A stretch of DNA of 64,000 nucleotides from Kiritimatiellia bacterium (GCA_017403825.1 JAFRDO010000010.1:20401-84400), one strand, 5' to 3'; numbered from the stretch's first letter, positions 1,166-46,991 are shown. The notes: generated by a model not told the origin, from the sequence alone. Numbers and translations are program-made.

Positions 1166-1178
1166 GAAACAACGAACC

Positions 1179-4727: not shown

Positions 4728-5552
4728 ATGAACAGACAACTGATAATCGGTGCGGCGGTCGCTTTTGCGGCGTCGCTCGCCTTTGCGAAGCCCGTCACGA
4801 TGATGAGCTACAACATACGCATCGGCTGCGGTCTTAACGGAGCGTTCAAGTTGGCGCCGGGCGACCTCGGCCATCTGCCGCAGGTTGCGAAGGTCATCCG
4901 CGACGTCAACCCGGATTGGGTGGCCATACAGGAAATAGACAGCAAGACCAAGCGCGTCGGGTTCGTTGACCAGACCGCCGAACTGGCCAAGCTCTGCGGC
5001 ATGAAAGGCACTTTCGTGCGCAAGACGCTCAACACGAAGATGAACAAGTTCCGCGTGCAAAACGCCGCTACGGCCGAGGAACTTGACGGAGCTGGCGAGT
5101 ATGGCTTGGCAATCCTCTCGAAAGAGAAGCCCATCAAGGTCTCGAAGGTGCTGGTGCCTGGCTACTGCCATACACGGTGCATCGAGTTCGTGGAGTTCAA
5201 GGACTACGTGGTCGCCTGCACGCACTTTCCGCTGAAAGAGGAGCATTGTCTCGTGGCCGCCAAGGTTGCGTTGGCGAACATTGCCGACTACCGCAAGCCG
5301 GTGTTCCTGGCGGGCGACTTCAACGTTGGCCCCGAATCCAAGACGATGGCAGAGCTGAAAACGGGCATGACGATCCTCAACGATCCGGCGGTCTTCACGT
5401 TCCCGTCATCCGGGCCGCAGTGTACCATCGACTTCATCATGGTCGATACGCCTCATGCCGGGCGCGTTGCCGTAACAGAGCGGCGCGTGATCGCCGATGC
5501 GGAGGCGACGGACCACTGTGCCGTAGTAGTGAAGGCCGACTTGAACCTTTAA
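4728..5552 (+). CDS. Secreted endonuclease/exonuclease/phosphatase (EEP) family protein
   Basis: A signal peptide is followed by the N-terminal EEP motif 'MSYNIRIG' and conserved 'DWVAIQEID' and 'DHCAV' blocks typical of EEP-fold enzymes. Confidence 0.8.
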   Translation: MNRQLIIGAAVAFAASLAFAKPVTMMSYNIRIGCGLNGAFKLAPGDLGHLPQVAKVIRDVNPDWVAIQEIDSKTKRVGFVDQTAELAKLCGMKGTFVRKTLNTKMNKFRVQNAATAEELDGAGEYGLAILSKEKPIKVSKVLVPGYCHTRCIEFVEFKDYVVACTHFPLKEEHCLVAAKVALANIADYRKPVFLAGDFNVGPESKTMAELKTGMTILNDPAVFTFPSSGPQCTIDFIMVDTPHAGRVAVTERRVIADAEATDHCAVVVKADLNL

Positions 5553-5587
5553 GCGCTCGCACTCAGGTAAAACAAGGGAGAATCATC

Positions 5588-6340
5588 ATGCTGAACGACT
5601 ACGGATACATCGACAAGGCGATAGCCAATATCAAGGAAGTCGCCGATAAGCAGGAGGCCAACATCAAGGCCGCAGCGACCCTGATGGCTGATGCGATCGC
5701 CGCCGACAAGCTCATCAACGTCTATGCGGGCGGCGGACACACCACGCTCGCGATGGGAGAGATGTTCTTCCGCGCCGGCGGCCTCGCCAACATCAACCCA
5801 ATGATGGAAACCGCGCTTTCAGTCTTCAACCAGGCGCTCAAGTACCTTGAGCTGGAACGTACCGTAAACTTCGGCGCATCAATAGTGAAGTACTACGGTC
5901 CGAAGGAAGGCGACGTCGTTCTCTTCTTCCACAACATCGGCATCAATCCGGCGACGATCGACGCCGCCGAGGAGTGCAAGAAGCGCGGCTGCAAGATCAT
6001 CGCCGTCGCCTCGTCGTACTGGCAGAACGAAATGCCGAAGGACCACTTCATCCGCCACCCGAACGGCAAGAACCTCTTCGACTATGCGGACGTCTGCATC
6101 GACGACTACAACCCAGTCGGCGATGCGGTGGTGAACGTTCCCGGCATGACGACGCCCATCGGCCCCGTCTCGAACGTAGTTGACTTCACCATCGCCCACC
6201 TTCTCGAGATCGAGACATGCCGCCAGTGCGTCGAGCGCGGCATCGTGCCACCGGTCTGGAACTCGGCCAACGCCCCCGGCGGCGACGAGAAGAACGCAGC
6301 CTACCTCGCGAAGTACAAGCCGCTCGTGAAGTGTCTGTAA
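5588..6340 (+). CDS. SIS-domain protein (UPF0309-like sugar-phosphate isomerase/binding fold)
   Basis: The ATG at 5588 has an AAGGGAG RBS; the longer track ORF 5177.. overlaps the EEP gene. The 'VYAGGGHTTLAMGE' and 'AVASS' patterns fit a SIS fold. It is paralogous to 39191..39892. Confidence 0.65.
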   Translation: MLNDYGYIDKAIANIKEVADKQEANIKAAATLMADAIAADKLINVYAGGGHTTLAMGEMFFRAGGLANINPMMETALSVFNQALKYLELERTVNFGASIVKYYGPKEGDVVLFFHNIGINPATIDAAEECKKRGCKIIAVASSYWQNEMPKDHFIRHPNGKNLFDYADVCIDDYNPVGDAVVNVPGMTTPIGPVSNVVDFTIAHLLEIETCRQCVERGIVPPVWNSANAPGGDEKNAAYLAKYKPLVKCL

Positions 6341-6376: not shown

Positions 6377-8818
6377 ATGAACATCAAGAGCATAGTGGTT
6401 GCGGCTTCGCTGATGGCGCTTTGCGCTTCTGCTTCCGACGTATCCTACCCTTACGCCTCGGGCGATACGTCGCTTGGCGATGGTGCCGTGGTCCTTACCT
6501 ACGAGGAAGGAACGACCGACGTCAAGACGCTGACGGCGACTCCGACAGATGGCGGCACGGTCTCGATCACGGGCGACGCGATGACGTTTGCCGACGACGC
6601 GGCGATCACGCTGTCCACCTCCGGAACGGTCTCCTTCGCCAGCATGGTGACGACGCTTGGCAAACTCTCCCTTTCCCGCAGCGATGGAGCGTATGTCGTC
6701 TGGACGGGAAAGGCGCTCACGCCATCTACAACGGCCTCAGGTGTTGAAGTGTTTGCGGGACTTAACCGTGATACTGATCTTGAGCATTCGTCCATCGTTT
6801 TTGTCGGTGGTGCCGACGGCCCTTGCCCTGGGCGTTTTCACTACGTGAGCGGCCCAAGTAGTGGCATCTATACGCTGAATAATGTCAGACCGGACTATAC
6901 CTATTCCATTCGTCCTCAATTGAGTGGAAATTCACCCATTACGGGCGTCCGCTGTATAACAGGTTCACGTTCGCAACAGTTCGTGGAATATCCAGACGGT
7001 TCGCTATGGAACAGCAAAGGCGCGGAACATTACTGCGGAGAGAGCCAGGCAGTGCCAGGTGGCACGCGGATTGGAAACACATCTGACCTCAAGCTTACAA
7101 AGATAATCGTCCGAAAAAAAGGAATGTCGGAAAAGGTTTGGGTGCGTTTTGACGGCGGTGTGGCGCTGGGCGGCGAAACGTCCGTAGGCGCTGGCGTCGA
7201 GGCTGTGATAGGGGCGTCCGAGGGCGATGGTGCGGTAACGCTTGCCTGTCCGATCACAGGGAATGGCGATGTCCGCATCGCCACGTCTACAGCGACAACG
7301 GCTTTTGCCGGTACGTCGTATTTCGAGCCGTTCATCAACACGTCATGGCAGATTCTTGCTACAAATCGTTCGCTTTCGGCTCTTACGAGCCTTTCCGCAC
7401 ACATGTTGGGCGGAAGCCACAATTATGTTGCGTATGCTGACGTTGGCGGCACGCCAACCGATGCCTATTACATCAAGTACAACCCAGATTCCAACACCGC
7501 CACCTGCCAGTTCCAGTATTGGACAGGAAGTGGGCTCAAATTTGTTAAAGCCCAGCTTCGGCAGAATGGAGTAAATGTAGAGATCAAGGGCGTTGCCGCA
7601 GGATATTACACCAACAGTCAGTACAACTACAACAACAATGAGCCCCATGATTTTGACAATGATTCCAACAACGCTAATTTTGCAACGTCTGCGACGGCAT
7701 CAGGATATGGTATCCATTATATCACAGCCACGTTTGCTGGGGCGACGGGTATGGGTGTCGCGAGGCTTGAAAGTACGATGAACGCTATGTTCGGTAGCAT
7801 ATTGACCTTTGATGGAAGCAATGGCCCATTGCATGTAACCGTCACCAACCAGAACGCTTTCCCCATCTGCGGCGTGGTGAACGTCGGCACGAATGCAGAC
7901 GTGGCGTTGCGGGTAAAAGGATTGGGTCTTACATCGGGCGTTTCAGGAGGCACAAGCAAGATTGTCGTCCAGCGAGGCGGCATTTTGAGCCGTGGTGGCG
8001 GAGCGAATGGCCAGATTGGAACCTATCAGGATTTTGTCCTTGACGGTGGAACGTATGAAAGCATCGACTATAATGTTTATCAGAGCTACATCACTTTGAT
8101 GAATGGGGCTCACATGATAGGTGCTTCACCTCCGAGGACGGTGTACAGCTATTCCCCGCAATATTGGAGGGTGAGAGGCACAAGCCCTTCATTTATCGAC
8201 AATGGGATTAACATTTATGGCTCAGGTACTGCAAGCGGTGGAGAGTCAAAAAGATTCAGGATTGACGTTGCGGATGTCACAGGCGATGATGATGTTGATT
8301 GCACAGTTTCAAAGATATTTCATAACGATGGCAATCAGCAGCGTTTTTCGTATTTCAGGTTCGAGAAGTTGGGCGCAGGCACCATGCTTCTTGCAGGCTC
8401 TGGTTTGGCAGTGAAGCTGGAAACGTTTGTCAGCGGCGGTACGTTCCTTCTTGGGGCGAGCGGGATTGCGACAAACGAGTTTGTGCTGTGCGGCGGTAAC
8501 CTTGCGGTGGCGGCGAACGTCACCAACAACATTGGTGCGCTCACGGTGAGCAACGCCTGCACGATTGCGGTCGGCACGGGCGGGTCGCTCTCGTTCGCGT
8601 CGTTCACGGCGGATGAAGGACTTCAGCCGAAAGCAATCACGATCGATGCGCCGTTGGAAGGCAATGTCATCAAGTTCGACACTACTCTTACGGACGAGGA
8701 GCGCAACTTATTCCGCTGGAAGGATAGCGCGGCGCCGACGGGCGCAAGGCGCGTCGATCAGGACGCGAACGGCTACCTGCATCCGCACTCCGGTGGAATG
8801 TTGATCTTTATAAAGTAG
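6377..8818 (+). CDS. Large secreted protein with autotransporter-associated beta-strand (PATR-like) repeats, paralog 1
   Basis: An AGGAGA RBS precedes the signal peptide MNIKSIVVAASLMALCASA. The body is Gly/Thr-rich beta-helix-like sequence with 'GAGTxxL.G' repeats. The N-terminal ~100 aa and the C-terminal ~60 aa are shared with 16466..18499. Confidence 0.6.
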   Translation: MNIKSIVVAASLMALCASASDVSYPYASGDTSLGDGAVVLTYEEGTTDVKTLTATPTDGGTVSITGDAMTFADDAAITLSTSGTVSFASMVTTLGKLSLSRSDGAYVVWTGKALTPSTTASGVEVFAGLNRDTDLEHSSIVFVGGADGPCPGRFHYVSGPSSGIYTLNNVRPDYTYSIRPQLSGNSPITGVRCITGSRSQQFVEYPDGSLWNSKGAEHYCGESQAVPGGTRIGNTSDLKLTKIIVRKKGMSEKVWVRFDGGVALGGETSVGAGVEAVIGASEGDGAVTLACPITGNGDVRIATSTATTAFAGTSYFEPFINTSWQILATNRSLSALTSLSAHMLGGSHNYVAYADVGGTPTDAYYIKYNPDSNTATCQFQYWTGSGLKFVKAQLRQNGVNVEIKGVAAGYYTNSQYNYNNNEPHDFDNDSNNANFATSATASGYGIHYITATFAGATGMGVARLESTMNAMFGSILTFDGSNGPLHVTVTNQNAFPICGVVNVGTNADVALRVKGLGLTSGVSGGTSKIVVQRGGILSRGGGANGQIGTYQDFVLDGGTYESIDYNVYQSYITLMNGAHMIGASPPRTVYSYSPQYWRVRGTSPSFIDNGINIYGSGTASGGESKRFRIDVADVTGDDDVDCTVSKIFHNDGNQQRFSYFRFEKLGAGTMLLAGSGLAVKLETFVSGGTFLLGASGIATNEFVLCGGNLAVAANVTNNIGALTVSNACTIAVGTGGSLSFASFTADEGLQPKAITIDAPLEGNVIKFDTTLTDEERNLFRWKDSAAPTGARRVDQDANGYLHPHSGGMLIFIK

Positions 8819-8860: not shown

Positions 8861-9754
8861 ATGAACGCAAAAATCATCCTTGCGGCTGGCGCCATGCTTG
8901 CCGCGGCTGCCGCCGTCGCGGCGCAGCATCCCGCCCCGCCGATCCCGCCGAACTGGGAGCCGATCCTCACGCGCCCCGGCGCACTCGCGAAAGGGAGCGG
9001 ACACCTTCAAGGCATGTGCGTCACGTCCAACGCGATCTACGGAACGCTCCACGACGGCATCTACAAGTTCGACTGGTATGGACGGATGATCATGCACGTC
9101 CGTGCGGACAAGCACACTGGCGACATCTGCTTCTGGAACGGCAAGCTTTACACGGCAGTCTGCGGAAAGCAGGAGACGCCAGGATTCCGCGGACGTATCG
9201 ACGTGTGGGACGAGAACCTCAAACGCGTCGGCTCCATGGAGTTCAAGCGTTCCGCCGACGGCATCACGTGTCTGGACGGCGTTCTGTATGTGGGGCTGGG
9301 GCCGGCGCGCAATCCGGAAAAGCCATTTCGCGGCAACTACTTCGGCAAGTTCGACGCCGAGACGCTTGAGCCGCTCTGCGAGCCATTTCTCGTGGATCAC
9401 GGCTATGACGTGACTGCCGGTGTGCAGAACATGGCGACGGACGGAGAGAAGCTGTACATCAACTTCTATACGCCTGAGGAGGAGTATCCGTGCTTCTTCG
9501 TGTTCGACAAGGACTTCAAGGTGCTTCAGTCTCATGTGTTCGGCTGGCGGCATGGAGTGGATCTCGTGGGCGGGGGCGAGCCAGGGGAGGTGCGCCTCAT
9601 CTACGCGCTTACGATAAACTGCTGGTCCAAGGCGAGCATGCTGCAGCTTGATCCGGCGCCGTCCCAGACACTTTTCCGATATGCGGAATTGAAAGACGGG
9701 AAGATTCGTGACATTACACGCTACATCAAGTTTCGCAACGAGATGAAGAGGTAG
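8861..9754 (+). CDS. Secreted protein of the uncharacterised 'HxQGMC' domain family (copy 1)
   Basis: It carries a signal peptide. The conserved blocks [56 protein letters not shown] and GVQNMATDGEK are shared with 55129..56052, 56197..57072 and an internal segment of 23246..28318. Confidence 0.6.
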   Translation: MNAKIILAAGAMLAAAAAVAAQHPAPPIPPNWEPILTRPGALAKGSGHLQGMCVTSNAIYGTLHDGIYKFDWYGRMIMHVRADKHTGDICFWNGKLYTAVCGKQETPGFRGRIDVWDENLKRVGSMEFKRSADGITCLDGVLYVGLGPARNPEKPFRGNYFGKFDAETLEPLCEPFLVDHGYDVTAGVQNMATDGEKLYINFYTPEEEYPCFFVFDKDFKVLQSHVFGWRHGVDLVGGGEPGEVRLIYALTINCWSKASMLQLDPAPSQTLFRYAELKDGKIRDITRYIKFRNEMKR

Positions 9755-9784: not shown

Positions 9785-11332
9785 ATGAAACGGATGCTTG
9801 CGGCCTTCGGGCTTTGTGCGGTTGTTCTGAACGGGTCGGCTGCGGAGAACTTTGCCTTCGCGCCGTATGTGGAGCCGAATCCAGTGACGATGTCGGTCGA
9901 TTCCAATACGCTGGTGCGGCTCGACAGGAGCCAGACAGTGACGATTGCATGCGCGGACGGCCTGGAGCAGGCGGTGGAATGGGCTGAGGCGCGTTTCAGT
10001 GAATGGTTCCGTCTCACGAAGACGGGGTGGCTATTTCCATCTGTCAATGCGCCGCGCGTAGCGGCGGCGACGTTCGCTGGCGAACCGGTCGCGGGTGGCG
10101 ACGAGGCTTACGAGCTGGCGGCGCGTCCCGACGGGGTGTCGGTGCGGGCCAACACGCTTCAAGGCGTGCGCTATGCGCTCTACACGCTTCGTCAGACGAT
10201 TCTCGCCATGCCGCGTGACGTGCGCAAGGTCGAATGGTATGCGATGCCGGCACTGAAGGTGAAGGATGCACCGGCAATGAAGTTCAGGGGCATTCACCTT
10301 GGCTGGTACGTCAACCGCACCACGCCCGCAGAGATTGAGAAGAGGCTCCGTCTCGCTGCTTACCTCAAGTACAACTATGCGGTGATCGAACCTTGGGGCA
10401 CATTCCGTTCTGAGCGGCATCCGTGGTGGGGCTGGAAGGAGGGAACGATGACGCCCGACGTCACGCGGAGGCTCGTTAAGCTCGGCAAGGAGCTGGGCAT
10501 CACGCTCATTCCCCAGATCCCGGCCTTTGGCCACGCCTCGATGGGCATCACCTCCCCCGGACGCCACGCCATCTTGGACGCGCACGGGGAATATGCGCCG
10601 CTCTTCGAGTCGCTGAACGGCTGGAACTGGTGCATCTCCAATCCCGAGACGCTCAAGGTGCAGTTCGAGATCATCGACGAGCTGATGGAACTGTTCGACA
10701 ACCCGCCTTACTTCCACATCGGATGCGACGAGCCGGCAAAGCCGAACTGCCCGCGCTGCCTTGCCGCCGATTACCGTGCGCTGACGATCAAGCACATCAC
10801 GGCGCTCCATGACGGGCTGAAGGCGCGCGGTACAACGCCGATGCTCTGGCACGACATGTTCTTAAAGAAGCATGACCCGAAATGGCCGGGTTCCGTCGCC
10901 AACGGCACGGACGAATCGATCACGATCCTGGACGAACTGCCGCATGACATGGTGATCTGCGACTGGGTCTACGGACTGAAGTGCCCGGAGGGGAACTACG
11001 CGTCGCTCAAGTATTTCAAGGACAAGGGGTTTGAGGTCGTATCCTGTCCCTGCCACAAGGTCGACAACACGATGGTGCAGAGAGAATCAGTCCTCAAGCT
11101 CGGGCTGAAGGGAATGCTCGTAACCACATGGAGCTACGGGCAGGGCAAGGAGAAAGGCAAGGTGTTCGCCGATACGTTCGCTGGCGGCGCTGCGGCGGCG
11201 TGGGGATCGACCTATGAGGAAAGCCCGCTCTGGAAGTGGCATTATGATCTTGACCTGATCCGCAACCTGCGTGACGTGGTGCACGACATGAGTCTTGACG
11301 ATCACAATGCCACTGGCACATACATGGACTGA
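9785..11332 (+). CDS. Secreted GH20-like beta-N-acetylhexosaminidase-family hydrolase (paralog B)
   Basis: An AAGGAG RBS precedes a signal peptide. The gene is collinear with 2334..3896, sharing 'NYAVIEPWG', 'ITLIPQIPAFGHA', 'FHIGCDEPAKPNCPRC' and 'MLWHDM'. Confidence 0.6.
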   Translation: MKRMLAAFGLCAVVLNGSAAENFAFAPYVEPNPVTMSVDSNTLVRLDRSQTVTIACADGLEQAVEWAEARFSEWFRLTKTGWLFPSVNAPRVAAATFAGEPVAGGDEAYELAARPDGVSVRANTLQGVRYALYTLRQTILAMPRDVRKVEWYAMPALKVKDAPAMKFRGIHLGWYVNRTTPAEIEKRLRLAAYLKYNYAVIEPWGTFRSERHPWWGWKEGTMTPDVTRRLVKLGKELGITLIPQIPAFGHASMGITSPGRHAILDAHGEYAPLFESLNGWNWCISNPETLKVQFEIIDELMELFDNPPYFHIGCDEPAKPNCPRCLAADYRALTIKHITALHDGLKARGTTPMLWHDMFLKKHDPKWPGSVANGTDESITILDELPHDMVICDWVYGLKCPEGNYASLKYFKDKGFEVVSCPCHKVDNTMVQRESVLKLGLKGMLVTTWSYGQGKEKGKVFADTFAGGAAAAWGSTYEESPLWKWHYDLDLIRNLRDVVHDMSLDDHNATGTYMD

Positions 11333-12545
11333 CGTGTCAAAACCCCTGCTCATATCTGCAGTCGCCATGTCGTTGCCCTGCCTGGCGATCGGCGGGCATC
11401 TGACGTTTGACGAGCCTGCCCCCGGACGCGATTCGGGGCGCATATACTATTATGTCCCCGACGGGCTTGACCTTTCCCGCCCTGCGCCGCTGCTGGTGTT
11501 CCTTCACGGCGGCGGCATCGCGTCCACCGATTCCACGCCCGGCAGCTACTTCAGCGAAGAGCGGCGCGCCCTGATGCCGGATGTCACGAATGCACCGTTC
11601 ATCGTGGCGGCGCCGTCCGCACCGGTCACCGGCGACAGTTCCCGCTGGAACCATGCCGGGACATCTAAGCTCATCGATGCCACGATCGCCGCCGCCAGCC
11701 GGAAGTTCCGCATTGACCAAGACCGCATTTTCCTAGGCGGACATTCGATGGGTTGCTACGGGGCGTGCCATCTCGGGCAGATACTTGCCGACAGGTTCGC
11801 CGGCGTGTGGCTGAGTTCAGGCGCATGGTGGGAGGCGGACTTCCGGGCGTTCTGGGGAACGCCGGTCTATATTCAGCATGGCGCGCTTGACTGCTCGCCG
11901 CGTCCCGGCTATTCCGGCACGCACAAGAGACCTCGCCGCCACCACTGGTGCGGAGTGAGCTTTGCCAGGTGCGCACATGACCTGATGACCCGTCATGGCG
12001 TGGAGCATGTCTACGACGAACACTCGGAAGGCCATTCGCTCGCGTTCCCTGCGGCTAAGGCGGCCATGCGGCGGTTCTTTGCCTGGGCGAAAGACAAGCG
12101 ACGCAATCCATACGCGAAGAAGGTGGCTTTGGTCACGCCATGCGGCACGAAGCATCCTGATCTTGAGCAGGCCTCGAAGTCGCGTTGGCTAGAACTTGCG
12201 GAAAGGTCTGCCGGCGAGATCGAAGTCGATGGCATCGAGCTGTACGGGCCGCCAATCGCCAAGACGGATGACGATCTCACGCGTCAGACCTATTCGCCTG
12301 TCAGACGGCGGTGGAACGACGGCGCGCGCATCATCGCCGAGAATCTCGGCGGAAACCACTTCAAGGTCGAGACCGAGAATGTGAAGCAATTCCTCATCTA
12401 CCTCTCCCCGCAGATGGGCGATCTCTCCAGGCCGTTCACGGTTGATCTTGGTACGGACGGAATCCGCACGATAGTCGCAGAGCCGATTTCTCCCAATGGC
12501 GACTATTCCGCTCGTCTTTCGGTCGTGGTGAAGGAAGGTTCATGA
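11295..12545 (+). CDS. Alpha/beta-fold esterase (GHSMG nucleophile elbow)
   Basis: It has 'LLVFLHGGG' and the 'GGHSMGCYGA' GxSxG motif. The true start may be the internal ATG at 11367, which avoids overlap with the upstream gene. Confidence 0.6.
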   Translation: MTITMPLAHTWTDVSKPLLISAVAMSLPCLAIGGHLTFDEPAPGRDSGRIYYYVPDGLDLSRPAPLLVFLHGGGIASTDSTPGSYFSEERRALMPDVTNAPFIVAAPSAPVTGDSSRWNHAGTSKLIDATIAAASRKFRIDQDRIFLGGHSMGCYGACHLGQILADRFAGVWLSSGAWWEADFRAFWGTPVYIQHGALDCSPRPGYSGTHKRPRRHHWCGVSFARCAHDLMTRHGVEHVYDEHSEGHSLAFPAAKAAMRRFFAWAKDKRRNPYAKKVALVTPCGTKHPDLEQASKSRWLELAERSAGEIEVDGIELYGPPIAKTDDDLTRQTYSPVRRRWNDGARIIAENLGGNHFKVETENVKQFLIYLSPQMGDLSRPFTVDLGTDGIRTIVAEPISPNGDYSARLSVVVKEGS

Positions 12546-13645
12546 ACTCCGGCAGGCTGCGATCGCTCGATGCCCTGCGGGGGTTTGACATGATCTGGAT
12601 TCTCGGTCTGGAGCAGGTCATGCGCGGCTTCTGCAAACTGTTCCCTGGCGGATCGGACTGGTGGTTCGAGCACCAGTTCCATCATGTGGAATGGGAGGGG
12701 CTGGCGTTCTACGACACTATCTTTCCACTGTTCGTGTTCATTGCCGGCGTGAGCTTTCCGTTCTCCTACGCGAAGCAGGTGGAGCGCGGGGATTCGCCTC
12801 TGCGCATCCATGCGCGGATATTCCGCCGCGCGTCGGCCCTGATTCTGCTCGGCATGGTGTATAACGGAATCCTCGCCTTCAACTTCACGGACTTCCGCTA
12901 TGCGAGCGTGTTGGGCAAGATCGGCATCGCCTGGATGGTGGCCGCGCTGTGGTATGTCCATTTCGGGGTTAACGCCAGGCTTGCGATATGCGGCGCAACG
13001 CTCGTGGGCTACTGGGCGCTTCTGCAGCTGACTGCGCCTGACGCACCGGCTGGCTTTGGGCCGTTCACGCCAGAGGGGTGCTTCCCTGGCTATCTTGACA
13101 GGTTGGGCTTCACGCCCGGCCAGTTCTACATCCCCGGACTGCTGGAACCGTCCGGAATACCCGTATCGCTCTTCGGTTCGGCCACTGCCATGATGGGCAT
13201 GTTCGCGGGCGACCTTCTGCGCTCGGGACGCGACTCTCTCACGGCTGAGCGCAAGGTTCTGTATCTTGCGCTTTCCGGGCTGGCGGTGGGGCTTGCCGGA
13301 TGGGGCGTCTCGTTCAGCTGTCCGATCATAAAGAAGCTCTGGACGCCAAGCTTCATGCTTGTGGTAGGCGGATATTCGTTCATGATTCTGGCGCTGTTCT
13401 ACTGGATCATTGACGTGCTGCATCATGACCGCTGGTGCTTTTTCCTGCAGGTTGTCGGAGTGAACTCGATAACGATCTACATGCTTAGGCGCATTGTAGG
13501 CTACCGGCAGATTTCGCAGTTCCTGTTTGGCGGCGTGGCGTCATGGTTCCCGAGCCCGGAGCTTGTCGAGTCCGCGGGAATCGTGCTGCTATGCTGGTTG
13601 ACTTGCTGGTTTCTTGACCGGCATCGGGTATATCTGAAAGTATAA
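12542..13645 (+). CDS. Polytopic membrane protein of the HGSNAT-like acyltransferase family (heparan-alpha-glucosaminide N-acetyltransferase-like, DUF1624/DUF5009 type)
   Basis: The ATGA start overlaps the preceding stop. The N-terminus 'RLRSLDALRGFDMIWILG' is characteristic of this family, and multiple TM helices are present. Confidence 0.55.
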   Translation: MNSGRLRSLDALRGFDMIWILGLEQVMRGFCKLFPGGSDWWFEHQFHHVEWEGLAFYDTIFPLFVFIAGVSFPFSYAKQVERGDSPLRIHARIFRRASALILLGMVYNGILAFNFTDFRYASVLGKIGIAWMVAALWYVHFGVNARLAICGATLVGYWALLQLTAPDAPAGFGPFTPEGCFPGYLDRLGFTPGQFYIPGLLEPSGIPVSLFGSATAMMGMFAGDLLRSGRDSLTAERKVLYLALSGLAVGLAGWGVSFSCPIIKKLWTPSFMLVVGGYSFMILALFYWIIDVLHHDRWCFFLQVVGVNSITIYMLRRIVGYRQISQFLFGGVASWFPSPELVESAGIVLLCWLTCWFLDRHRVYLKV

Positions 13646-13658
13646 GAAAGGTAACGAC

Positions 13659-14657
13659 ATGCGTTGCACAAAAATGATTTTCTCTTTGGCTTCCTTCGCG
13701 GCGGTTTGCCTTGTCGCAGCTGGGGATTCGGGCGTGGGACCGGCGTTCAAGTTGTTTCAGGTGCCCGGAATGCCCGCGCCGGTCTACTATTTCGCGCCTC
13801 ACCGCATTGAGGACGGAAGCAGATGCGAGACGGCCGCCATCCTGATTCACGGCTGGGGCGGAGGATTAAGGCTTACCGGAGACGTGGAACCGTTCGCGGC
13901 GGCGCTCGCCAAGGCCGTCGGCCCGTCGAATACGGCTCCGTATGTCGTATCACCGCTTTTCCCGCGAAGGAGAATCCTTGTCAAGAATGGCATAAAGGAT
14001 GACGGGAGGGCCGTATGGAACGATTCCTGGGGACGGGACTTATCCAAGCATGGCAAGCCAGACGACGATTGGCGCGGCGGAGGCGATGCCGCGGGCGTGA
14101 AGCTCAGTTCGTTCGATGTGGTAGATGCGATTCTTCTGGCCCTTGGCGACAAGGAACGGTATCCCGCCCTTAAACGCGTGATCGTTACCGGGTTCTCCGC
14201 CGGCGGACAGTTCGTTGGCAGGTATGTCGCCGTCGGCAAGGGGTTCGTGCGCGATGGCGTGGAGGTGCGATATGCCGCAATGGCCCCATCGACCGAGTTG
14301 CGGCTTGATGACGATGTGATATGGCACTATGGCATTATGGGGCGTCCGCGCTATTCGGCGCAAATGACGCGCGACCAGATGCTGAACAACCTTTCCCGCC
14401 GCCGCGTGTGGCGTGCATGCGGAACGGAAGACGTACTCGGCAAGGCCCTTGATGTCTGTCCGGAAGCAATGAGACAGGGGGAGAACCGCTATGCGCGTTT
14501 CCGCAATCTCGAGAAGTATCTGAAGCAATTCCCGGAGTGGTCGAAGCAGGTTTCGTTCCATGCCATCGAAGGCATCGGACACGAATCCAAAGTGGCCCAT
14601 ACCGAGAAGGTCTTCATCGACTACGCCCTTGGAAACGATGCGGTGGACAGACAATAA
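13659..14657 (+). CDS. Secreted alpha/beta hydrolase (GFSAGG serine motif)
   Basis: It has a signal peptide, a 'HGWGGG' oxyanion-like block and a 'TGFSAGGQ' GxSxG motif. Confidence 0.6.
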   Translation: MRCTKMIFSLASFAAVCLVAAGDSGVGPAFKLFQVPGMPAPVYYFAPHRIEDGSRCETAAILIHGWGGGLRLTGDVEPFAAALAKAVGPSNTAPYVVSPLFPRRRILVKNGIKDDGRAVWNDSWGRDLSKHGKPDDDWRGGGDAAGVKLSSFDVVDAILLALGDKERYPALKRVIVTGFSAGGQFVGRYVAVGKGFVRDGVEVRYAAMAPSTELRLDDDVIWHYGIMGRPRYSAQMTRDQMLNNLSRRRVWRACGTEDVLGKALDVCPEAMRQGENRYARFRNLEKYLKQFPEWSKQVSFHAIEGIGHESKVAHTEKVFIDYALGNDAVDRQ

Positions 14658-14697
14658 CTGACGCCGAGTCCGCCATGACGCAGGCCTTGCGCAGGCC

Positions 14698-15918
14698 TCA
14701 CGACTCCCCTTTCGTCCGTCTGCCGCGTTGCGCACAACGGTTCTTCCTCCGCCAGGCTTCTGGAGGCATCCCCTTTTCTTCGGAGAACGAGCGCGAGAAG
14801 TATTCCTGAGAAGCAAACCCGCATTTCTCGGCGATGCGCATGACGGGCAGTTCGCTCTTGAGCAGAAGCTGGCACGCCGCTTCAAGGCGCGAGGCGGCGA
14901 TCGTCTGCTGAACCGTCCGATTCAACACCTTGCGGAAGGCTGCGTCCACGGCTGTGTGGGAGCGGTTCAAGTATGCATAGACCTCAAACGCGGACAAGCG
15001 GTCCGCCACATGGTTCTTTATGAAGATGAGAGCATCGGACAGCCACGGCGGATCGATGGGATAGACGTTAGTGGACGCCCGTTCGACGATGCCCTTGGGA
15101 TCGACCTGCCTCACGATCTGCCTTTTGGCGACTGCGGGGTTGTTGATGACCTCCATTAGCGTGCGAATGGCCTCGCGGCCGATCTCGACGGTGTCCGGAT
15201 CAATGCTGGAGATGGTCGGCTTGGAGAATCCGCACACGATCACGTCGTTGTCCAGTCCGAGGATCGCCACCTCGTGCGGAACGTCAATCCCGCAGTCAAG
15301 ACACACGTGGAGCAGCTGCCATGCCCGCAGGTCGTTCGGGCAGAAGACGGCGATCGGCTTCGGCAGCTTCTTCACCCAGCGGGTCAGGGCCTTTGCGTCA
15401 GGCGCGCGGTTCAGGCGCTCGTTGATGAGCACCGACGAATCGAAGTCGTACCGCACCTGCACCGGCGGCTCGTAGCAGTGGCATCTGTGGCCTTCTGCGG
15501 ACAACGCACGGCAGAACGCCTGTCTGCTGTAGTCTGAAAACCTGCCGCCCGAGAATCCACAGAAACCGAAGGTGGAAAACCTCCTATCGATGAAATGCCC
15601 TGCAGCCAGGCTCCCAAGCTTGGCATGATTTGTCTTTACGACGGCAAAACCCGGTCTAGGCTTTTCGTAATAGACGTCAACCACCGGCTTCCCGCTCGCG
15701 GCAAGACGCTTTGCGATAGTGTCGTTCATCACGCGGGCGATGAAGCCGTCGAACTTCGAGAGAACGGACGGTTCCTTAAGGGACTTTGGATCGACGAAGA
15801 ACGGCGCAAGCCTTTCATGCTCCTGCGCATAGGCGGTGATGCCGGCGCACAGGTCGCGCCCAAAGGCACGCGTCAGCTCGACAAGAACCCCGATCTTTGT
15901 CTCTGAAACCGGCTTCAT
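14698..15918 (-). CDS. AraC/XylR-type transcriptional regulator with a periplasmic-binding-protein-like sugar-sensor domain and a C-terminal AraC HTH
   Basis: An N-terminal LacI/PBP-like fold ('IGVLVE...', 'DGFIA') is followed by the C-terminal AraC signature ('LSDALIFIKNHVADRLSAFEV...SQEYFSRSF'). The start is ATG at 15916-15918. Confidence 0.8.
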   Translation of the reverse strand: MKPVSETKIGVLVELTRAFGRDLCAGITAYAQEHERLAPFFVDPKSLKEPSVLSKFDGFIARVMNDTIAKRLAASGKPVVDVYYEKPRPGFAVVKTNHAKLGSLAAGHFIDRRFSTFGFCGFSGGRFSDYSRQAFCRALSAEGHRCHCYEPPVQVRYDFDSSVLINERLNRAPDAKALTRWVKKLPKPIAVFCPNDLRAWQLLHVCLDCGIDVPHEVAILGLDNDVIVCGFSKPTISSIDPDTVEIGREAIRTLMEVINNPAVAKRQIVRQVDPKGIVERASTNVYPIDPPWLSDALIFIKNHVADRLSAFEVYAYLNRSHTAVDAAFRKVLNRTVQQTIAASRLEAACQLLLKSELPVMRIAEKCGFASQEYFSRSFSEEKGMPPEAWRRKNRCAQRGRRTKGES

Positions 15919-15949
15919 GCCGGTTAGTATATCACAGGATCGGCTTGCC

Positions 15950-16014
15950 TTGCAATAATTACAACCTATGTTGCAAAGTTTACATTTTGCAACGACGACG
16001 CGGTTTGATATACT
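15950..16014 (+). promoter_or_regulatory. Putative sigma70-type promoter and TTGCAA direct-repeat operator array upstream of the ASRT-like gene
   Basis: Three TTGCAA hexamers lie at 15950, 15971 and 15987. The last can serve as a -35 element, with a 16-nt spacer to TATACT at 16009-16014. The ATG is at 16056. Confidence 0.35.
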
Positions 16015-16055
16015 GCCTGTGTATCGCGGACAAGCCAGACACGGAGGGTGAAACT

Positions 16056-16415
16056 ATGGAGATAGGAAAGAAAACATGGGTCTTTTCGGACGGCGACCTG
16101 CCGCCACCAGGAGACACCGAGCCTTTCGGGCACGAGGCCCTTATGGTCGTGAACAACGGCGAGAGAGAGGCCACCATCAAGGTGACAATCCTATTCGACG
16201 ACAAGGACCCCAAGGAAGGCATCACGTTGCACGTGCCGCCGCGCCGCGTGAACTGCTTCCGCATGGACATGCCGCTCGGCGACGAGAAGTTCCAGCTCGG
16301 GCCCGGCCAGACCGCAACGATTCTCGAATCGGACATTCCGATCGTGGCCGTGTACGGGCGGCTCGACCGCCGTAAGGACATAGCCTACTATCCTGTCCAG
16401 GGCTACTCCTGCTAA
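16056..16415 (+). CDS. Sensory-rhodopsin-transducer-like (ASRT family) small soluble protein
   Basis: A GGAGGGTG RBS precedes the ATG at 16056. The 119-aa product is collinear with my recollection of ASRT/TM1070-type proteins ('W....G.LPPPG..EP...HE...V.N.GE.EA...VTI.FDDK.P..G..L.VP.RR' and 'S.IPIV...RLD'). The annotated track ORF starts earlier at 15897, but that N-terminus lacks an RBS. Confidence 0.55.
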   Translation: MEIGKKTWVFSDGDLPPPGDTEPFGHEALMVVNNGEREATIKVTILFDDKDPKEGITLHVPPRRVNCFRMDMPLGDEKFQLGPGQTATILESDIPIVAVYGRLDRRKDIAYYPVQGYSC

Positions 16416-16465: not shown

Positions 16466-18499
16466 ATGAACATCAAAAGCATACTGATCGCGACCTCGCT
16501 GATGGCGCTTGGCGCTTCGGCGGCCGATGTGTCCTACCCCTACACACCAGGCAACACCAACCCCGGCGCGGGCGTGACAATCGCCTTCGACGGCGACAAC
16601 AACATCACGTCGATTTCGGCGACGCCGACGGACGGCGGCTCGATTACCCTAACCGGCGGCGCTCCGACATTCGCAGCCGGCGCAACGATTACAGTGAATG
16701 CCCCGGGTTCGCTCGTGTTCACCGGACCGGCGACGGCGAATGGTGCGCTCGCCATAAACCGTGGTGACGACGCATACCTTGCCTGGTCGTCCGACACGGC
16801 CTTGAACGGCACTCTTACGGAGAGTCCGTGCTTTACCGGCCTATCCAGCACCGATCGCGATGAAGGAAGAATCGAGTTTTTCAGGCTTGTCTCGACAGGC
16901 CCTACAGACGACAATAACGTTTTCGGCCAACAGGGGCATTGGAATCTGATTACCTATACAGGATCCGGAATCTTTCAGTTCAACAAGGTATCGGCCGCTT
17001 ATGCGTTCACTGCCCGCGTTCAGCTCGGCCCTAAAACGTCCGGCGAGAACAATCTGTACGCTCGTTGCCTCAACGCCATCCGCTCGCCACGTTTCGGCCT
17101 TTACCCCGATGAAGAGGCTGGATGGGCGACGCTCAACATGTATAATGCGTGGAGCGGGAAAGCCCATCATACCGAACGCGGGCGGTATAACATCACAGAT
17201 TCTTACGGCACGGGTCTGGGTTCGACGGAGAACCTTGGCTTCCGGAAGATAATCATACGCCGCACAACCGTTCCCAACGGCCCGGTGTCTGTTCGTTTCA
17301 ATGGTGGCGCAACGCTTGGCTCAGAAACCACGATTGGCGCGGGGCTTGAGGCGGTGTTTGTGGCGACGGCCACCGATGCCGTTTCGCTTGGAAGTGCAAT
17401 TTCCGGCGATGGAGACCTCAGAATCGAGACGGCGTCGTCCGACGCGACTACGACGCTTGACTGTGATATGTCGGGCCTTGTCGGCGGAAAATTCACCATC
17501 GAGGGAAAAGACAACGCTATCCACACGGTCATGCGGACTGCAGACACGAAGTTTCCATCTGGTGGCGAAGTGCATATCAACACCAACGCCATCCTCACCC
17601 TCTATGGCAACACGGTAAGCACAAGTTATGCCTGGAAGCAGTCGCTGTTCGTGCATCGCGGTGGAACGCTGAAGACTATAGACAAGACCTGGCAAATCAG
17701 GCCCAAGCAGCAGATTATGCTCGATGGCGGTACATTCAACGTCCGCAACGGAGTGTTCTACCTCAACTACCTGGTTCTTTCAAATGCAACCATGAACGGC
17801 ACATCATCGCCGCGCTCGGTTTACAATGAATCGTCCGGGCAGTACTGGCGGGTGATAGGCACCGAGCCTTCGTATCTGACAAGTACGTATGGTGTTAACG
17901 TTTATGGGGCCTCCAGCAAGAGTTCCGCCGTCCCGTTCAGATTAGATGTCGGGGATGTGGCGGATGGAGTCGATTGCTTCATGAGTCGCATTACTTGTGA
18001 CACGGGCGGTACGAACGTTCCGTGGTTCTGGTTCGAAAAATATGGAGCGGGCACACTTAAGATTTCCGAGAATTCGAAGGGCGTGCGCATGGAGTCGAGG
18101 ATTTACAACGGAACTCTGCTATTGGCAGGAAACAGTATCATGACGAACGAGGTGCAACTGTTGGGCGGTAATTTCGCGATAGATGCAGGAAAGTCCAACG
18201 CCCTCGGAAACCTCACGGCGACCACCAATGCAACGCTCACGGTTGGGGCGGGTGGTTCTCTGTCGTTCGCGTCATTCACGCCGGGTGCGGGTCTGGCAGA
18301 GAAATCAATTGTCATTGACGCGCCGATGGAAGGGAATCTCGTTAGAATTGGCACGAACGGCAACGGTCTTGCGGCAGAGCATTGCAAATACTTCCGCTGG
18401 AAGGACGCTACGGACGCGACAAAACTCTGGCGCGTGGAGCAGGATGCTGACGGATATCTACATCCATCGATAAAGGGCGTAGTGATACTCGTTTATTGA
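16466..18499 (+). CDS. Large secreted PATR-repeat protein, paralog 2
   Basis: It has the signal peptide MNIKSILIATSLMALGASA. Its N- and C-terminal modules are shared with 6377..8818, including the terminal 'FRWKD...D.DGYLHP' followed by a hydrophobic strand. Confidence 0.6.
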   Translation: MNIKSILIATSLMALGASAADVSYPYTPGNTNPGAGVTIAFDGDNNITSISATPTDGGSITLTGGAPTFAAGATITVNAPGSLVFTGPATANGALAINRGDDAYLAWSSDTALNGTLTESPCFTGLSSTDRDEGRIEFFRLVSTGPTDDNNVFGQQGHWNLITYTGSGIFQFNKVSAAYAFTARVQLGPKTSGENNLYARCLNAIRSPRFGLYPDEEAGWATLNMYNAWSGKAHHTERGRYNITDSYGTGLGSTENLGFRKIIIRRTTVPNGPVSVRFNGGATLGSETTIGAGLEAVFVATATDAVSLGSAISGDGDLRIETASSDATTTLDCDMSGLVGGKFTIEGKDNAIHTVMRTADTKFPSGGEVHINTNAILTLYGNTVSTSYAWKQSLFVHRGGTLKTIDKTWQIRPKQQIMLDGGTFNVRNGVFYLNYLVLSNATMNGTSSPRSVYNESSGQYWRVIGTEPSYLTSTYGVNVYGASSKSSAVPFRLDVGDVADGVDCFMSRITCDTGGTNVPWFWFEKYGAGTLKISENSKGVRMESRIYNGTLLLAGNSIMTNEVQLLGGNFAIDAGKSNALGNLTATTNATLTVGAGGSLSFASFTPGAGLAEKSIVIDAPMEGNLVRIGTNGNGLAAEHCKYFRWKDATDATKLWRVEQDADGYLHPSIKGVVILVY

Positions 18500-18533: not shown

Positions 18534-20051
18534 ATGAAAATACTTGTAGGAGCGTTTCAGTGCGAATCGAACACGTTCTCTGCCGCAAAGGCGGGGAAGG
18601 AAAACTTCTACATCCTGCACGGCGAAGAGGCGAAGCAGAAGCTTTTCGCGTCCCATCTCTTTGAGGAAGCAGGGTTTGAAGTCGTGCCGCTCGTCTATGC
18701 CGTAAGCCTGCCGTCCGGCATGGTGACGCGAGAGTGTTTCGACGAGGTGCTGGCCGACTTCCGCGCCGAAGCCGCAAAGCATCCAGACGCCGACGGCGTG
18801 TACCTCTATCTGCACGGCGCGATGTACGTGGAGGGACTTGGAAGCGGCGAGGAGTGGACGGTGAAGGAACTTCGCAAGACCGTCGGCGATGCGATTCCCA
18901 TCACGCTCGCGCTCGACTTCCACGGCAACCTGTCGGACGGGCTCGTGCCGCTCGTGCAGGGTATCGCCGGCTACCGCACCGCTCCGCACACCGACTACGA
19001 CGACACCGAGCGCCGCGCCGCCGAAGCGCTGATGCGGATTCTCAACCCGGAACCCGAAACCCTCAACCCGGAACCCATCCGTCCCCACTTCTTCCGCATC
19101 CGCGTGCAGTTCGCCGACGCCGCGCAGACGTCAATCGAGCCGTACGTCTCGGTGCTGCGGATGATCCGCGAGCTGGACGCCGACCCGCGCGTCGTGACGG
19201 CGTCCGTCTTCAACGGCCAACCGTGGGTAGATGCACCGTTCATGTCGGCGTCGATCGTCGTCTATTCGGCGTCCGGCCACGACGAGATCCACGCCAAGGC
19301 CAAGGCCGTCGCGGACTACTTTGACGCGCATAAGACCGACCTCACCTTCGGCGTGCCTGCGGTCGCGCCGGAAGACGTGGCGGAAGCCGTCCGCACGATG
19401 GCAAAGCCCGTCTTCGTGAGCGACTCCGGCGACAATACCACGGCAGGCGCGGCAGGCGAAAGCGACTGCCTCGTAAACGTCTTTCGCGGAACGGGACTTA
19501 AGACGCTTTTCACTTCGCTGTACGACCAGGACGCCGTGGCGAAATACGCCGGTAGCGCCGTGGGGCGCGGCAGGATTCTCGGCTTTGTCGGCGAAGATGC
19601 CGGAGAAGGCATTGTCGTGCGGGAAGGCAACGTTGACATCGTCTATTCGACCGTCCGCACCTCCTTCACGATGAAGGAACACTTCGTGGCGATGGGGCTG
19701 AATCCGGCGGACTATGACGTGGTGGTAGTGAAGCAGGGCTACCTCTGGCCCGGCGCGGCATCGCTCGCCGCCTCGCAAGTCTTCTGCATGACCCCCGGCA
19801 CTGCAACCAACGACTTCTCGACTTTGCCTTTCAAGCATCTTGAAGGCGACTACTACTACGTAAAACCAACCACAACCCCCAATCCTCCTTCGCTGAAGCT
19901 ACGGAGGATAAACCCCCAACCCCTAATCCCTAACCCCCAACAACCATGTCCTACTACAACAAAGAAGAGTCCAACAAGCGCATTGCCGCCGTTCAGGCAA
20001 TCCTTGAAAAGAAGAACCTTGACGCCGCGCTCGTCTATTTCGACGAGCTGA
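18534..20051 (+). CDS. M81 family metallopeptidase (MlrC / microcystinase C-like, DUF1485+DUF1446)
   Basis: The N-terminus 'ILVGAFQCESNTFS' matches the MlrC 'hETNtF' signature, and the length fits. The last ~40 codons are Pro-rich and overlap the next gene, so the true 3' end is uncertain. Confidence 0.7.
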   Translation: MKILVGAFQCESNTFSAAKAGKENFYILHGEEAKQKLFASHLFEEAGFEVVPLVYAVSLPSGMVTRECFDEVLADFRAEAAKHPDADGVYLYLHGAMYVEGLGSGEEWTVKELRKTVGDAIPITLALDFHGNLSDGLVPLVQGIAGYRTAPHTDYDDTERRAAEALMRILNPEPETLNPEPIRPHFFRIRVQFADAAQTSIEPYVSVLRMIRELDADPRVVTASVFNGQPWVDAPFMSASIVVYSASGHDEIHAKAKAVADYFDAHKTDLTFGVPAVAPEDVAEAVRTMAKPVFVSDSGDNTTAGAAGESDCLVNVFRGTGLKTLFTSLYDQDAVAKYAGSAVGRGRILGFVGEDAGEGIVVREGNVDIVYSTVRTSFTMKEHFVAMGLNPADYDVVVVKQGYLWPGAASLAASQVFCMTPGTATNDFSTLPFKHLEGDYYYVKPTTTPNPPSLKLRRINPQPLIPNPQQPCPTTTKKSPTSALPPFRQSLKRRTLTPRSSISTS

Positions 20052-28318: not shown

Positions 28319-28395
28319 TATACTTCGGCATAGATAATAACGATTGGACTTGTAAATTGAGAAGTGACGAACGAGGATTAACTCTTCGCCTTGCG

Positions 28396-33825: not shown

Positions 33826-33869
33826 CTAGTTCTCCAGCTCAATATAACTCGCATAAAAGGAACATATCA

Positions 33870-39139: not shown

Positions 39140-39190
39140 CCGGGAAAGAGGCTGCATTTGCATGCCGTTCATGAGCCGAAGGAACACGGA

Positions 39191-42269: not shown

Positions 42270-42272
42270 ATC

Positions 42273-46727: not shown

Positions 46728-46758
46728 AACAGAGGAGACGGCAAAACTGCCAGCAGCT

Positions 46759-46881
46759 TTACATAGAATGTAAAACCGACTTACATGCCATTACATCATG
46801 TCGCAAGCATTGAATTGACGGGCTGGCAATACAAGCGGGGAGTGCGTAACGGGCATGGGCAAAGTCTTACATTGCGTGTAA
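46759..46881. promoter_or_regulatory. Two copies of the palindrome TTACA-N5-TGTAA (46759-46773, 46867-46881) in the divergent gltB / glnN intergenic region; the first overlaps a TGTAA-N7-TTACA arrangement (46769-46785)
   Basis: This is a direct sequence observation. A third copy lies upstream of carA at 52254-52268. Confidence 0.4.
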
Positions 46882-46991
46882 TCTCATGGCCAATTTCAAA
46901 TGTCAGGCGGCTTTGGCACGCTATGTGCTAGCATATTCACGTGGACGGCAGATGCGATAACCGCGTCCCTCCCTGAAAGGAAAACGAAAAA

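Follow-up and report, generated by a model that had tools for sequence, protein, structure and literature searches.

Does a bacterium possess a counterpart of the two lysosomal enzymes that act in succession on alpha-linked glucosamine (GlcN) termini, the membrane-bound acetyltransferase HGSNAT and the alpha-N-acetylglucosaminidase NAGLU of glycoside hydrolase family 89 (GH89)? The question is raised by a 64,000-nucleotide stretch of DNA from a Kiritimatiellia bacterium (GCA_017403825.1 JAFRDO010000010.1:20401-84400; hereafter the window), in which a first-pass annotation had placed an HGSNAT-like polytopic acyltransferase (12542..13645, here called the target) and a GH89 enzyme (33870..37187) in one locus. 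Sequence and predicted structure place the target in the HGSNAT/NagX/DUF5009 branch of the transmembrane acyltransferase (TmAT) superfamily, and a functional pairing of its family with GH89-like genes is supported by gene order in relatives. The reading that we favor, with a rough probability of 0.45, is that the target may be an inner-membrane acetyl-coenzyme A (acetyl-CoA):amino-sugar N-acetyltransferase of the HGSNAT type, which would acetylate glycan termini before their cleavage by the GH89-like enzyme.

The open reading frame (ORF) is present as first described. It starts with ATG, runs from 12542 to 13645 on the + strand and encodes 367 amino acids (aa), and its translation holds the quoted motif, SLDALRGFDMIWILG, as residues 8-22. 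Since its start codon and the stop codon of the preceding esterase gene overlap (ATGA, 4 bp) and the next gene (13659..14657) begins 13 bp past its own stop, the target is an internal gene of an operon. Every soluble neighbour carries a signal peptide, and the operon is syntenic in the relative L007. A scan of genome contigs with the single target protein gave only four loci. The closest genomic relative, 95% identical and syntenic, is a Kiritimatiellae metagenome-assembled genome (MAG) from sheep ileum; other close ones are MAGs of the same group obtained from sheep rumen and from horse faeces. The source organism is a herbivore-gut bacterium of the Kiritimatiellae.

Family, fold and conserved residues of the membrane protein

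The NCBIfam model NagX (NF046061) matches the target over its full length (residues 5-367 against positions 3-369 of 369, E=1e-74). It is the sole NCBIfam match, and its score of 251.9 bits lies below the equivalog cut-off of 480 bits. Human HGSNAT is the sole sequence match in the PDB, both for the single protein (phmmer, E=9e-13) and for a family profile of 44 diverse homologues (E=1.4e-44). The alignment of the two proteins, which are about 22% identical, starts at HGSNAT residue 267 and reaches the C-terminal tail 'YRKKIF.K'. The family numbers 6,359 cluster representatives at E<=1e-3 in a 50%-identity library, and the nearest named database relatives of the target (46-49% identity) are annotated as 'DUF5009 domain-containing protein'.

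An AlphaFold2 model of the target, built on the homologue-profile alignment, reached a predicted local distance difference test (pLDDT) score of 92.7 and a predicted TM-score (pTM) of 0.92. The modelled protein adopts the ten-helix transmembrane fold of the TmAT superfamily and is closest to HGSNAT. In a Foldseek search of the PDB, the best 15 matches were all HGSNAT (E=6e-14, TM-score 0.78), and next came GWT1, a GlcN-phosphatidylinositol acyltransferase (E=1.4e-4, TM-score 0.62). GWT1/PIG-W belongs to the same superfamily and has a GlcN-containing acceptor, but its similarity to the target is much weaker, as is that of the AT3 proteins (OafA/OatA), and both groups are O-acyltransferases with other acceptors. 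Pfam gave no match to the target even at E<=10, the models of the HGSNAT clade (PF07786 and PF16401) included. The seed alignment of PF16401, the DUF5009 model, consists of two sequences only (PMC12423673), and because it is so weak the miss is not evidence against family membership. The Acyl_transf_3 model (PF01757) gave no match in the target at E<=10 either, precomputed PF01757 matches exist for few homologues only, and no SGNH domain is present. Sequence, fold, the NagX match and the lack of Acyl_transf_3 thus group the membrane protein with HGSNAT, as had been claimed, and not with the O-antigen or peptidoglycan O-acetyltransferases.

The luminal beta-sandwich domain and the extra first transmembrane helix (TM1) of metazoan HGSNAT are absent from the target (367 versus 663 aa). 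The luminal domain has been described as confined to metazoan HGSNAT and absent from all bacterial homologues (PMC11199644). A topology count of Lys and Arg residues in the loops alone, based on DSSP helices, was uninformative because these helices extend past the membrane; the orientation assumed below is therefore taken solely from homology to HGSNAT.

Residue roles were mapped onto the target from a cryo-EM study of HGSNAT (PMC11199644), and conservation was counted in the 44 diverse representatives and in 89 homologues from genomic loci. The dyad H48 and D58 (12683..12715, + strand), equivalent to the catalytic H297 and D307 of HGSNAT, is invariant in both sets (44/44 and 89/89). Equally invariant are R5, the counterpart of the pore-lining R267, the DxxR motif D10/R13 (D272/R275, of which R275 binds the CoA diphosphate) and R96 (R345, likewise a CoA diphosphate residue). 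The phenylalanines F61, F64 and F66 of the presumptive pore gate (F310, F313 and F315) are invariant or nearly so, and R119, which corresponds to R372, a ligand of the 6-hydroxyl group of GlcN, is invariant in the 89 locus homologues.

The sugar pocket carries a clade-specific substitution. Residues E202-P-S204-G205 ('EPSG'; 13145..13156, + strand) replace the 'DPEG' of HGSNAT, whose E499, a ligand of the 3-hydroxyl group of GlcN, corresponds to S204. Serine occupies position 204 in 11 of 11 in-clade loci and in all 40 sequences of the clade alignment (A3), glutamate in 76 of 78 out-of-clade homologues. In the aligned sequences, the switch from DPEG to EPSG is diagnostic of the Kiritimatiellae clade to which the target belongs.

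Compared with human HGSNAT, the enzyme of mucopolysaccharidosis (MPS) IIIC or Sanfilippo C (PDB 8vkj, 8jkv, 8tu9), the target is alike in fold, DxxR motif, CoA arginines, gating phenylalanines, His-Asp dyad and the counterpart of Arg372, and it has a NAGLU-family partner, in its case a genomic one. Unlike the human enzyme it is devoid of the luminal domain with TM1 and of an equivalent of Asn286, has Ser204 in place of Glu499 and shares only about 22% of its residues. Its setting would be the near-neutral periplasm instead of the acidic lysosome, and no link to sulfated substrates was found.

Bacterial members of this family are already on record. Fitness data from five bacteria showed that NagX is required for the use of glucosamine. 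The same study pointed out that NagX is homologous to HGSNAT, with the catalytic His retained, and suggested that it N-acetylates periplasmic glucosamine across the membrane (Price et al. 2022, PMC9007349). A study of 2025 assigned DUF5009 proteins to the HGSNAT clade (PMC12423673). The novelty of a bacterial HGSNAT analogue, implied by the first-pass annotation, therefore does not hold. What is new is the conserved pairing with GH89-like genes, only loosely visible in the window, together with the DPEG-to-EPSG pocket switch in a clade variant of a known family. A full-text search of incomplete coverage found no paper joining HGSNAT, GH89 and bacteria, or the name of the enzyme with polysaccharide utilization.

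Pairing with GH89-like genes

The pairing is supported by the contexts of relatives and not by the window alone. Eleven distinct contexts with homologues 57-95% identical to the target make up the in-clade sample. A GH89-like gene directly adjoins the target homologue in four of them, lies in the same operon in six and within 10 kb in seven. It stands directly upstream with a 4-bp overlap in L089 and in L090 (where GH97 and DUF4838 genes are neighbours), and directly downstream in L091, after a 1-bp gap and near genes for an FGE-sulfatase domain and a SIS_2 protein, and in L010, after about 50 bp. In L003 the GH89-like gene, fused to a Hepar_II_III_C domain, is one gene off with a CE15-like esterase between, in L009 it is two genes off on the same strand and in the same operon, and in L008 a GH89-like fragment lies 6.8 kb off. 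The context formed by the window and L007 contains GH20-like and esterase genes, with the GH89-like gene 20 kb off in the window. The most compact arrangement is that of L089. Around the target orthologue it assembles orthologues of the GH89-like gene, of the two SIS_2 genes (SIS2a and SIS2b), of the PfkB kinase and of a GH20-like gene (GH20a) of the window, besides Fic and GDSL genes. Because L089 gathers them, these genes, scattered over the window, form one functional set.

If up to 30 GH89-like paralogues per genome of about 3,000 genes are assumed, a flanking gene would be GH89-like by chance in about 2% of cases, and four direct adjacencies in 11 contexts give p of about 5e-5, a value computed over contexts that are phylogenetically non-independent. 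As the side on which the partner lies, the identity of the paralogue and the other neighbours all vary, the linkage appears to be retained rather than to reflect a single frozen arrangement.

The out-of-clade sample comprised 56 loci of at least 8 kb each. A tblastn search of these loci with the window proteins, which is blind to canonical GH89, revealed no recurrent neighbours. Two canonical GH89 genes, with Pfam NAGLU scores of 449 and 469 bits, emerged when the same loci were searched with a profile hidden Markov model. One of them (449 bits) directly follows the HGSNAT-like gene in L051 (OBKS01000005.1, 1..21098) and the other lies 6 kb from the HGSNAT homologue in L054. L051 is an independent instance of the pairing. 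It is a Bacteroidota polysaccharide utilization locus (PUL) with genes for a FecR anti-sigma factor, SusC, SusD, an 811-aa protein of unknown function, a 362-aa beta-propeller, the HGSNAT-like protein and GH89. Both out-of-clade homologues near canonical GH89 keep DPEG; thus the EPSG pocket accompanies the divergent GH89-like family, and canonical GH89 is found with the canonical pocket. Taken together, adjacency and shared operons in Kiritimatiellae relatives and the Bacteroidota PUL support the functional pairing of the two enzymes that the first-pass annotation had put forward.

The partner in the window (33870..37187, + strand) is an exported protein with a GH89-like, that is NAGLU-like, domain and a BNR_2 sialidase-like propeller, as recognised by Pfam, PDB and fold searches. 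The called ORF spans 33822..37187 with a TTG start; an in-frame ATG stands at 33870, and a signal-peptide-like sequence comes after it. Pfam NAGLU (PF05089) scored 38.9 bits against a cut-off of 25.5 in short matched stretches only, NAGLU_N reached 27.6 bits, slightly under its cut-off of 28.3, and the top PDB sequence match was human NAGLU (E=1.8e-8). A model of residues 1-826 was mediocre (pLDDT 64.5). Its best Foldseek matches were to Clostridium perfringens GH89 (E=1.8e-12, TM-score 0.46), with GH20, GH84 and GH115 folds well behind. The invariant W479-P480-E481 aligns with the nucleophile E446 of NAGLU, which canonical GH89 enzymes carry within 'LEG/PEG', and with E470 of two canonical GH89 proteins. 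The acid/base is probably the invariant E342, which lies just after a predicted strand (334-339); its distance to E481 is 139 residues, compared with 130 in canonical GH89. At the acid/base region (NAGLU E316, 'FNE'), hhalign gave no confidence, with an offset by a 3-4-residue indel. The catalytic Glu pair expected of a GH89 homologue is thus largely in place, the nucleophile as E481 and the acid/base as E342 with probability only.

Like human NAGLU, the Sanfilippo B enzyme (4xwh), and the C. perfringens enzyme CpGH89 (2vc9, 2vcb), the partner has a TIM barrel between a NAGLU_N-like domain and a helical C-terminal domain, and it carries its nucleophile in 'PE'. It differs from them in the fusion to BNR_2, in Pfam matches limited to barrel fragments and in its membership of a family expanded in Kiritimatiellae. 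This family gave 1,505 database matches, all named members of which are Kiritimatiellae and all source names of which read 'hypothetical'; many matches are 60-93% identical to the window copy. The GH89 identity assigned by the first-pass annotation therefore stands as far as gene, fold and family score are concerned, but the protein is highly divergent and its BNR_2 domain had been overlooked. The propeller occupies residues 901-1080 (36522..37061) and shows three Asp-boxes (SADGGDTW, STDGGRTW and SLDDGKTW). Some database paralogues of the GH89-like protein carry a SASA esterase, GH20 or Heparinase_II/III_C domain instead.

Proposed role and rival explanations

According to the reading that we favor, acetyl-CoA would enter the pore of the target from the cytoplasm. 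At the periplasmic face, H48 and D58 would remove a proton from the free amine of a glucosamine-type residue that is alpha-linked at the non-reducing end of an oligosaccharide, and this amine would then accept the acetyl group. The re-acetylated residue could then serve as substrate of the exported GH89-like exo-glycosidase, and the GH20-like hexosaminidases of the window, which need a 2-acetamido group, might benefit likewise. The freed N-acetyl sugar would be imported by an MFS transporter and processed by the PfkB kinase and by the isomerase/deaminase-like SIS_2 enzymes. The order of acetylation before cleavage would be that of lysosomal HGSNAT and NAGLU, but placed in the periplasm.

Several observations speak against this scheme. 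In the window, the target and the GH89-like gene are 20.2 kb apart, with a divergently oriented AraC-type regulator, M81 and M24 peptidases, an esterase-epimerase fusion and two giant genes in the gap; the 'one locus' of the first-pass annotation is right in that both genes share the window and loose in that other genes lie between them. Linkage by proximity within the window was rejected as an argument in view of this gap and of the abundant paralogues, and since GH89-like paralogues are so numerous in Kiritimatiellae, loose proximity is weak evidence in general. No GH89-like gene was present in the available flanks of three in-clade contexts, L001 (neighbours SIS2b, PfkB and the 382-aa protein u382), L002 (weak GH88 match) and L092 (GDSL+CE15 esterase). 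Neither a NagA-type deacetylase nor a known N-deacetylase was found in the window. The partner shares only about 14% of its residues with C. perfringens GH89, and its acid/base register is not securely aligned. Because the E499 ligand is Ser in the clade, the acceptor may not be plain GlcN, and terminal and free GlcN acceptors are indistinguishable by sequence. The oxyanion residue Asn286 of HGSNAT has no counterpart in the target, where K32 is aligned and residues 15-50 contain no Asn. This position is variable across the bacterial family, with no Asn counterpart anywhere there; Q45, three residues ahead of the catalytic His, is near-invariant (39/44 and 77/89) and may stand in for it. Finally, no DUF5009/NagX protein has been biochemically characterised (PMC12423673).

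A possible, albeit somewhat unlikely, alternative is salvage of the NagX type, in which free periplasmic glucosamine would be N-acetylated for uptake and catabolism of N-acetylglucosamine (GlcNAc), as proposed for NagX of Shewanella, Caulobacter and Echinicola, and in which adjacency to GH89-like genes would reflect only a common regulon for harvesting amino sugars, the two enzymes not acting in turn on one residue. The sole and full-length NCBIfam match (E=1e-74) agrees with it, as do the fitness data that link NagX to GlcN use in five bacteria (PMC9007349). Like NagX (Shewanella SO_3504, NF046061), the target is a bare HGSNAT catalytic domain of similar length that keeps the catalytic His, has no luminal glycan-binding domain (367 aa against the 663 aa of HGSNAT) and is set among amino-sugar genes that, as in nag loci, include those for an MFS transporter, SIS proteins and a sugar kinase. 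The score of 252 bits against an equivalog cut-off of 480 nevertheless speaks against this alternative, and the target's neighbours are GH89-like, GH20-like, esterase, SIS_2 and PfkB genes instead of nagP, nagK, nagA and nagB-II. No equivalents of NagA, NagK or NagB-II were detected in the window, in which the NagB_SO3506 model reached E=0.089 only, and no exo-glucosaminidase that would free GlcN was recognised. Moreover, the translational coupling with GH89-like genes seen in four relatives would not be expected from salvage, and the change of E499 to Ser in the clade, with EPSG for DPEG, points to an acceptor pocket unlike that of NagX-like homologues. The same pocket could be accommodated by a variant of the favored scheme, doubtful at present, in which the clade-specific EPSG enzyme and its co-inherited, divergent GH89-like partner would be a dedicated periplasmic relay acting on a non-canonical alpha-amino-sugar cap present in the herbivore gut and not on plain GlcN or heparan sulfate. 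Candidate caps are the GlcN-alpha-1,4-glucuronic acid head groups of plant glycosylinositol phosphorylceramide (GIPC) sphingolipids, GlcN-inositol of the glycosylphosphatidylinositol (GPI) type, heparosan-like glycans and 3-O-substituted GlcN.

Degradation of heparan sulfate or heparin itself, a true analogue of the Sanfilippo pathway acting on GlcN exposed by N-desulfation, is improbable. The first-pass annotation had named heparan and heparin as possible target glycans and had at the same time recorded the lack of a sulfatase in the window. Its negative observation is confirmed, as no sulfatase, sulfamidase, glycosaminoglycan lyase or GH88 domain occurs in any major ORF of the 64-kb window, and heparan or heparin as the target glycan is not borne out. 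The operon of the target holds GH20-like enzymes and esterases instead. Hints in relatives are the fusion of the GH89-like partner to Heparinase_II/III_C in L003, followed by a CE15-like esterase, a weak GH88 match upstream in L002, the FGE-sulfatase-domain gene beside the homologue in L091 and a weak Hepar_II_III_C match in L008, but they are scattered, single, weak and of differing kinds. Hepar_II_III_C domains are, moreover, not heparin-specific. A role as a sugar transporter, resembling that of Tannerella forsythia MurT (TfMurT), a proposed importer of N-acetylmuramic acid (MurNAc) encoded beside a kinase and a SIS etherase, is very unlikely. TfMurT belongs to the same broad family (PMC9007349, PMC7670621) and has been described as a MurNAc transporter (PMC7670621), and a SIS_2 gene follows the homologue in L001, L089 and L091, accompanied by a kinase gene in L001 and L089, in a layout like that of MurT-MurK-MurQ; SIS2b matches MurQ etherase models weakly (E=1.6e-4, far under the cut-off). 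Yet the whole acetyl-CoA and catalytic set of HGSNAT, needless for transport, is invariant, which argues for an enzyme and not for a TfMurT-like transporter. In the Foldseek search of the PDB with the target model no transporter fold rose above noise, HGSNAT does not translocate substrates (PMC11199644), and a separate MFS transporter is encoded in the window. The Bacteroidota DUF5009 proteins (PF16401), TfMurT among them, include the nearest named relatives of the target and some lie in PULs next to canonical GH89 (L051), but these homologues keep DPEG, and the Pfam model of the family misses the target. Least credible of all is an O- or N-acetylation of the bacterium's own envelope glycans in the manner of OafA/OatA, for which the catabolic setting would be incidental. 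Many acyltransferases of the TmAT superfamily do modify the envelope (PMC12423673), but the target has neither an Acyl_transf_3 match nor a fused SGNH domain, its closest relatives are HGSNAT and NagX, and across the 11 contexts the gene sits in operons with exported glycosidases, esterases and sugar-catabolic genes.

The choice between these readings matters because the sole functional model for the bacterial HGSNAT family, drawn from fitness data, is acetylation of free glucosamine. The pairing with GH89 offers a testable alternative, namely periplasmic repair of de-N-acetylated glycan termini for exo-glycosidases that depend on the N-acetyl group. If acetylation of glycan termini proves true, transmembrane re-acetylation would be a new type of step in models of gut glycan foraging, it would help to assign a function to a family that counts over 6,000 representatives when clustered at 50% identity, and it would supply bacterial models of the MPS IIIC enzyme that are small and easy to express, as CpGH89 was for NAGLU. 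If the relay on terminal caps is true, the two-enzyme logic of the lysosome would have a widespread bacterial counterpart, with the L051 PUL as second instance. If instead NagX-type salvage is true, the locus would be an amino-sugar salvage regulon of the ordinary kind, in a phylum that has been little studied.

Neighbouring genes and further observations

Domain searches confirmed the GH20-like genes (both with a GH20b domain, a catalytic domain and the motif HxGxDE), esterases, MFS transporter, two SIS_2 genes and PfkB kinase that the first-pass annotation had listed. The hexosaminidase genes closest to the target in the window are GH20-like, not GH89-like. One of them, for an exported GH20-like protein (GH20b; 9785..11332, + strand; Pfam GH20 and GH20b, motif HIGCDE, signal peptide), is two genes upstream in the same operon and syntenic in L007. 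The other, for the exported GH20a (2334..3896, + strand; Pfam, motif HLGCDE), has an orthologue that flanks the target orthologue in L089. The gene directly upstream of the target (11295..12545, + strand) encodes an alpha/beta-hydrolase esterase resembling PHB depolymerases and LC-Est1C (Abhydrolase_1, NCBIfam esterase_phb, PDB 3wyd with E=1.8e-11); its true start is probably downstream of the TTG. The gene directly downstream (13659..14657, + strand) encodes an exported protein of 332 aa (u332) with a GFSAGG motif like that of serine hydrolases, and its copy in L007 is syntenic and 90% identical.

Further upstream on the + strand are genes for an exported protein of the endonuclease/exonuclease/phosphatase (EEP) family (4728..5552; Exo_endo_phos, E=4e-13; syntenic in L007) and for SIS2a (5177..6340), a SIS_2 (PRK02947) protein resembling sugar-phosphate isomerases that was recognised by Pfam and NCBIfam and has an orthologue beside the target orthologue in L089. 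The first approximately 140 codons of SIS2a (5177..5606) overlap the EEP gene in another frame and its SIS domain begins at residue 144; its true start is probably near 5600. SIS2b (39158..39892, + strand; SIS_2, PRK02947) has orthologues next to the target orthologue in L001, L089 and L091, and the gene for a PfkB-family, ribokinase-like sugar kinase (39889..40758, + strand) has orthologues near the target orthologue in L001 and L089. The MFS sugar transporter gene (1..1165, + strand) is cut at its 5′ end by the window edge, and its product matches Sugar_tr (E=8e-51) at profile positions 106-452 only. The gene for u382 (1059..2207, + strand) has a counterpart with 89% identity in L001, located after PfkB (13849..14886). 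Its conservation between the window and the horse-faeces MAG is unusually high for such loci, which suggests an important cytoplasmic step.

The divergent regulator (14698..15918, - strand) combines, according to Pfam, an AraC-type helix-turn-helix domain with a sensor like that of periplasmic binding proteins, as in XylR, and similar regulators flank the homologue in L001 and L002. Between this gene and that of a 677-aa protein lies an ORF of 172 aa (15897..16415, + strand) with an ASRT (Anabaena sensory rhodopsin transducer) domain (E=2.5e-19).

Two exported proteins of 813 aa (u813; 6377..8818, + strand; syntenic in L007) and 677 aa (16466..18499) are paralogues with 38-41% identity, match nothing in Pfam, NCBIfam or the PDB and are candidates for an undescribed glycan-active family; u813 is encoded in the operon of the target. 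An exported protein of 297 aa (u297; 8861..9754, + strand) is duplicated in L007. A copy of the u297 domain is also contained in the product of 23246..28318 (1,690 aa), one of two giant exported proteins that, together with that of 28315..33825 (1,836 aa), have no Pfam domains apart from a weak CBM_11 match and have a region of about 600 aa in common; further copies of the u297 domain occur in two tandem genes at 55129..57072 (- strand). As no relatives of u332, u813, u382, u297 and a further protein, u250, were found in Pfam, NCBIfam or the PDB, the substrate is not readable from these neighbours.

A block of genes at 40713..55132, which follows the sugar genes on their downstream side, comprises guaA (- strand), the large subunit of glutamate synthase (- strand), type III glutamine synthetase, a gltD-like oxidoreductase, an amidotransferase, carA and pyrG. 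The position of this nitrogen and nucleotide block beside amino-sugar genes may or may not be meaningful. Genes related to peptides and D-amino acids also occur near the homologue, namely those for an Asp/Glu racemase, Amidohydro_3 and a beta-lactamase fold in L002 (11067..19284) and for a fusion of beta-lactamase and metallophosphatase in L009 (10291..12693), while the window encodes M81/MlrC and M24 peptidases at 18534..21118. Along with the family link to MurT, these genes raise the possibility of a connection to peptidoglycan or muropeptides.

In L001, a 349-aa gene after the homologue (11138..12187) was considered as a homologue of u332 and rejected, as it encodes an IS200-like transposase; this transposase gene lies between the homologue and SIS2b. 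Three relatives have a Fic-domain gene no more than a few kb from the target homologue (L002, 10687..11079; L003, 1..929; L089, 7271..8407). Both the recurrence of Fic and the transposase in L001 point to frequent rearrangement of the module.

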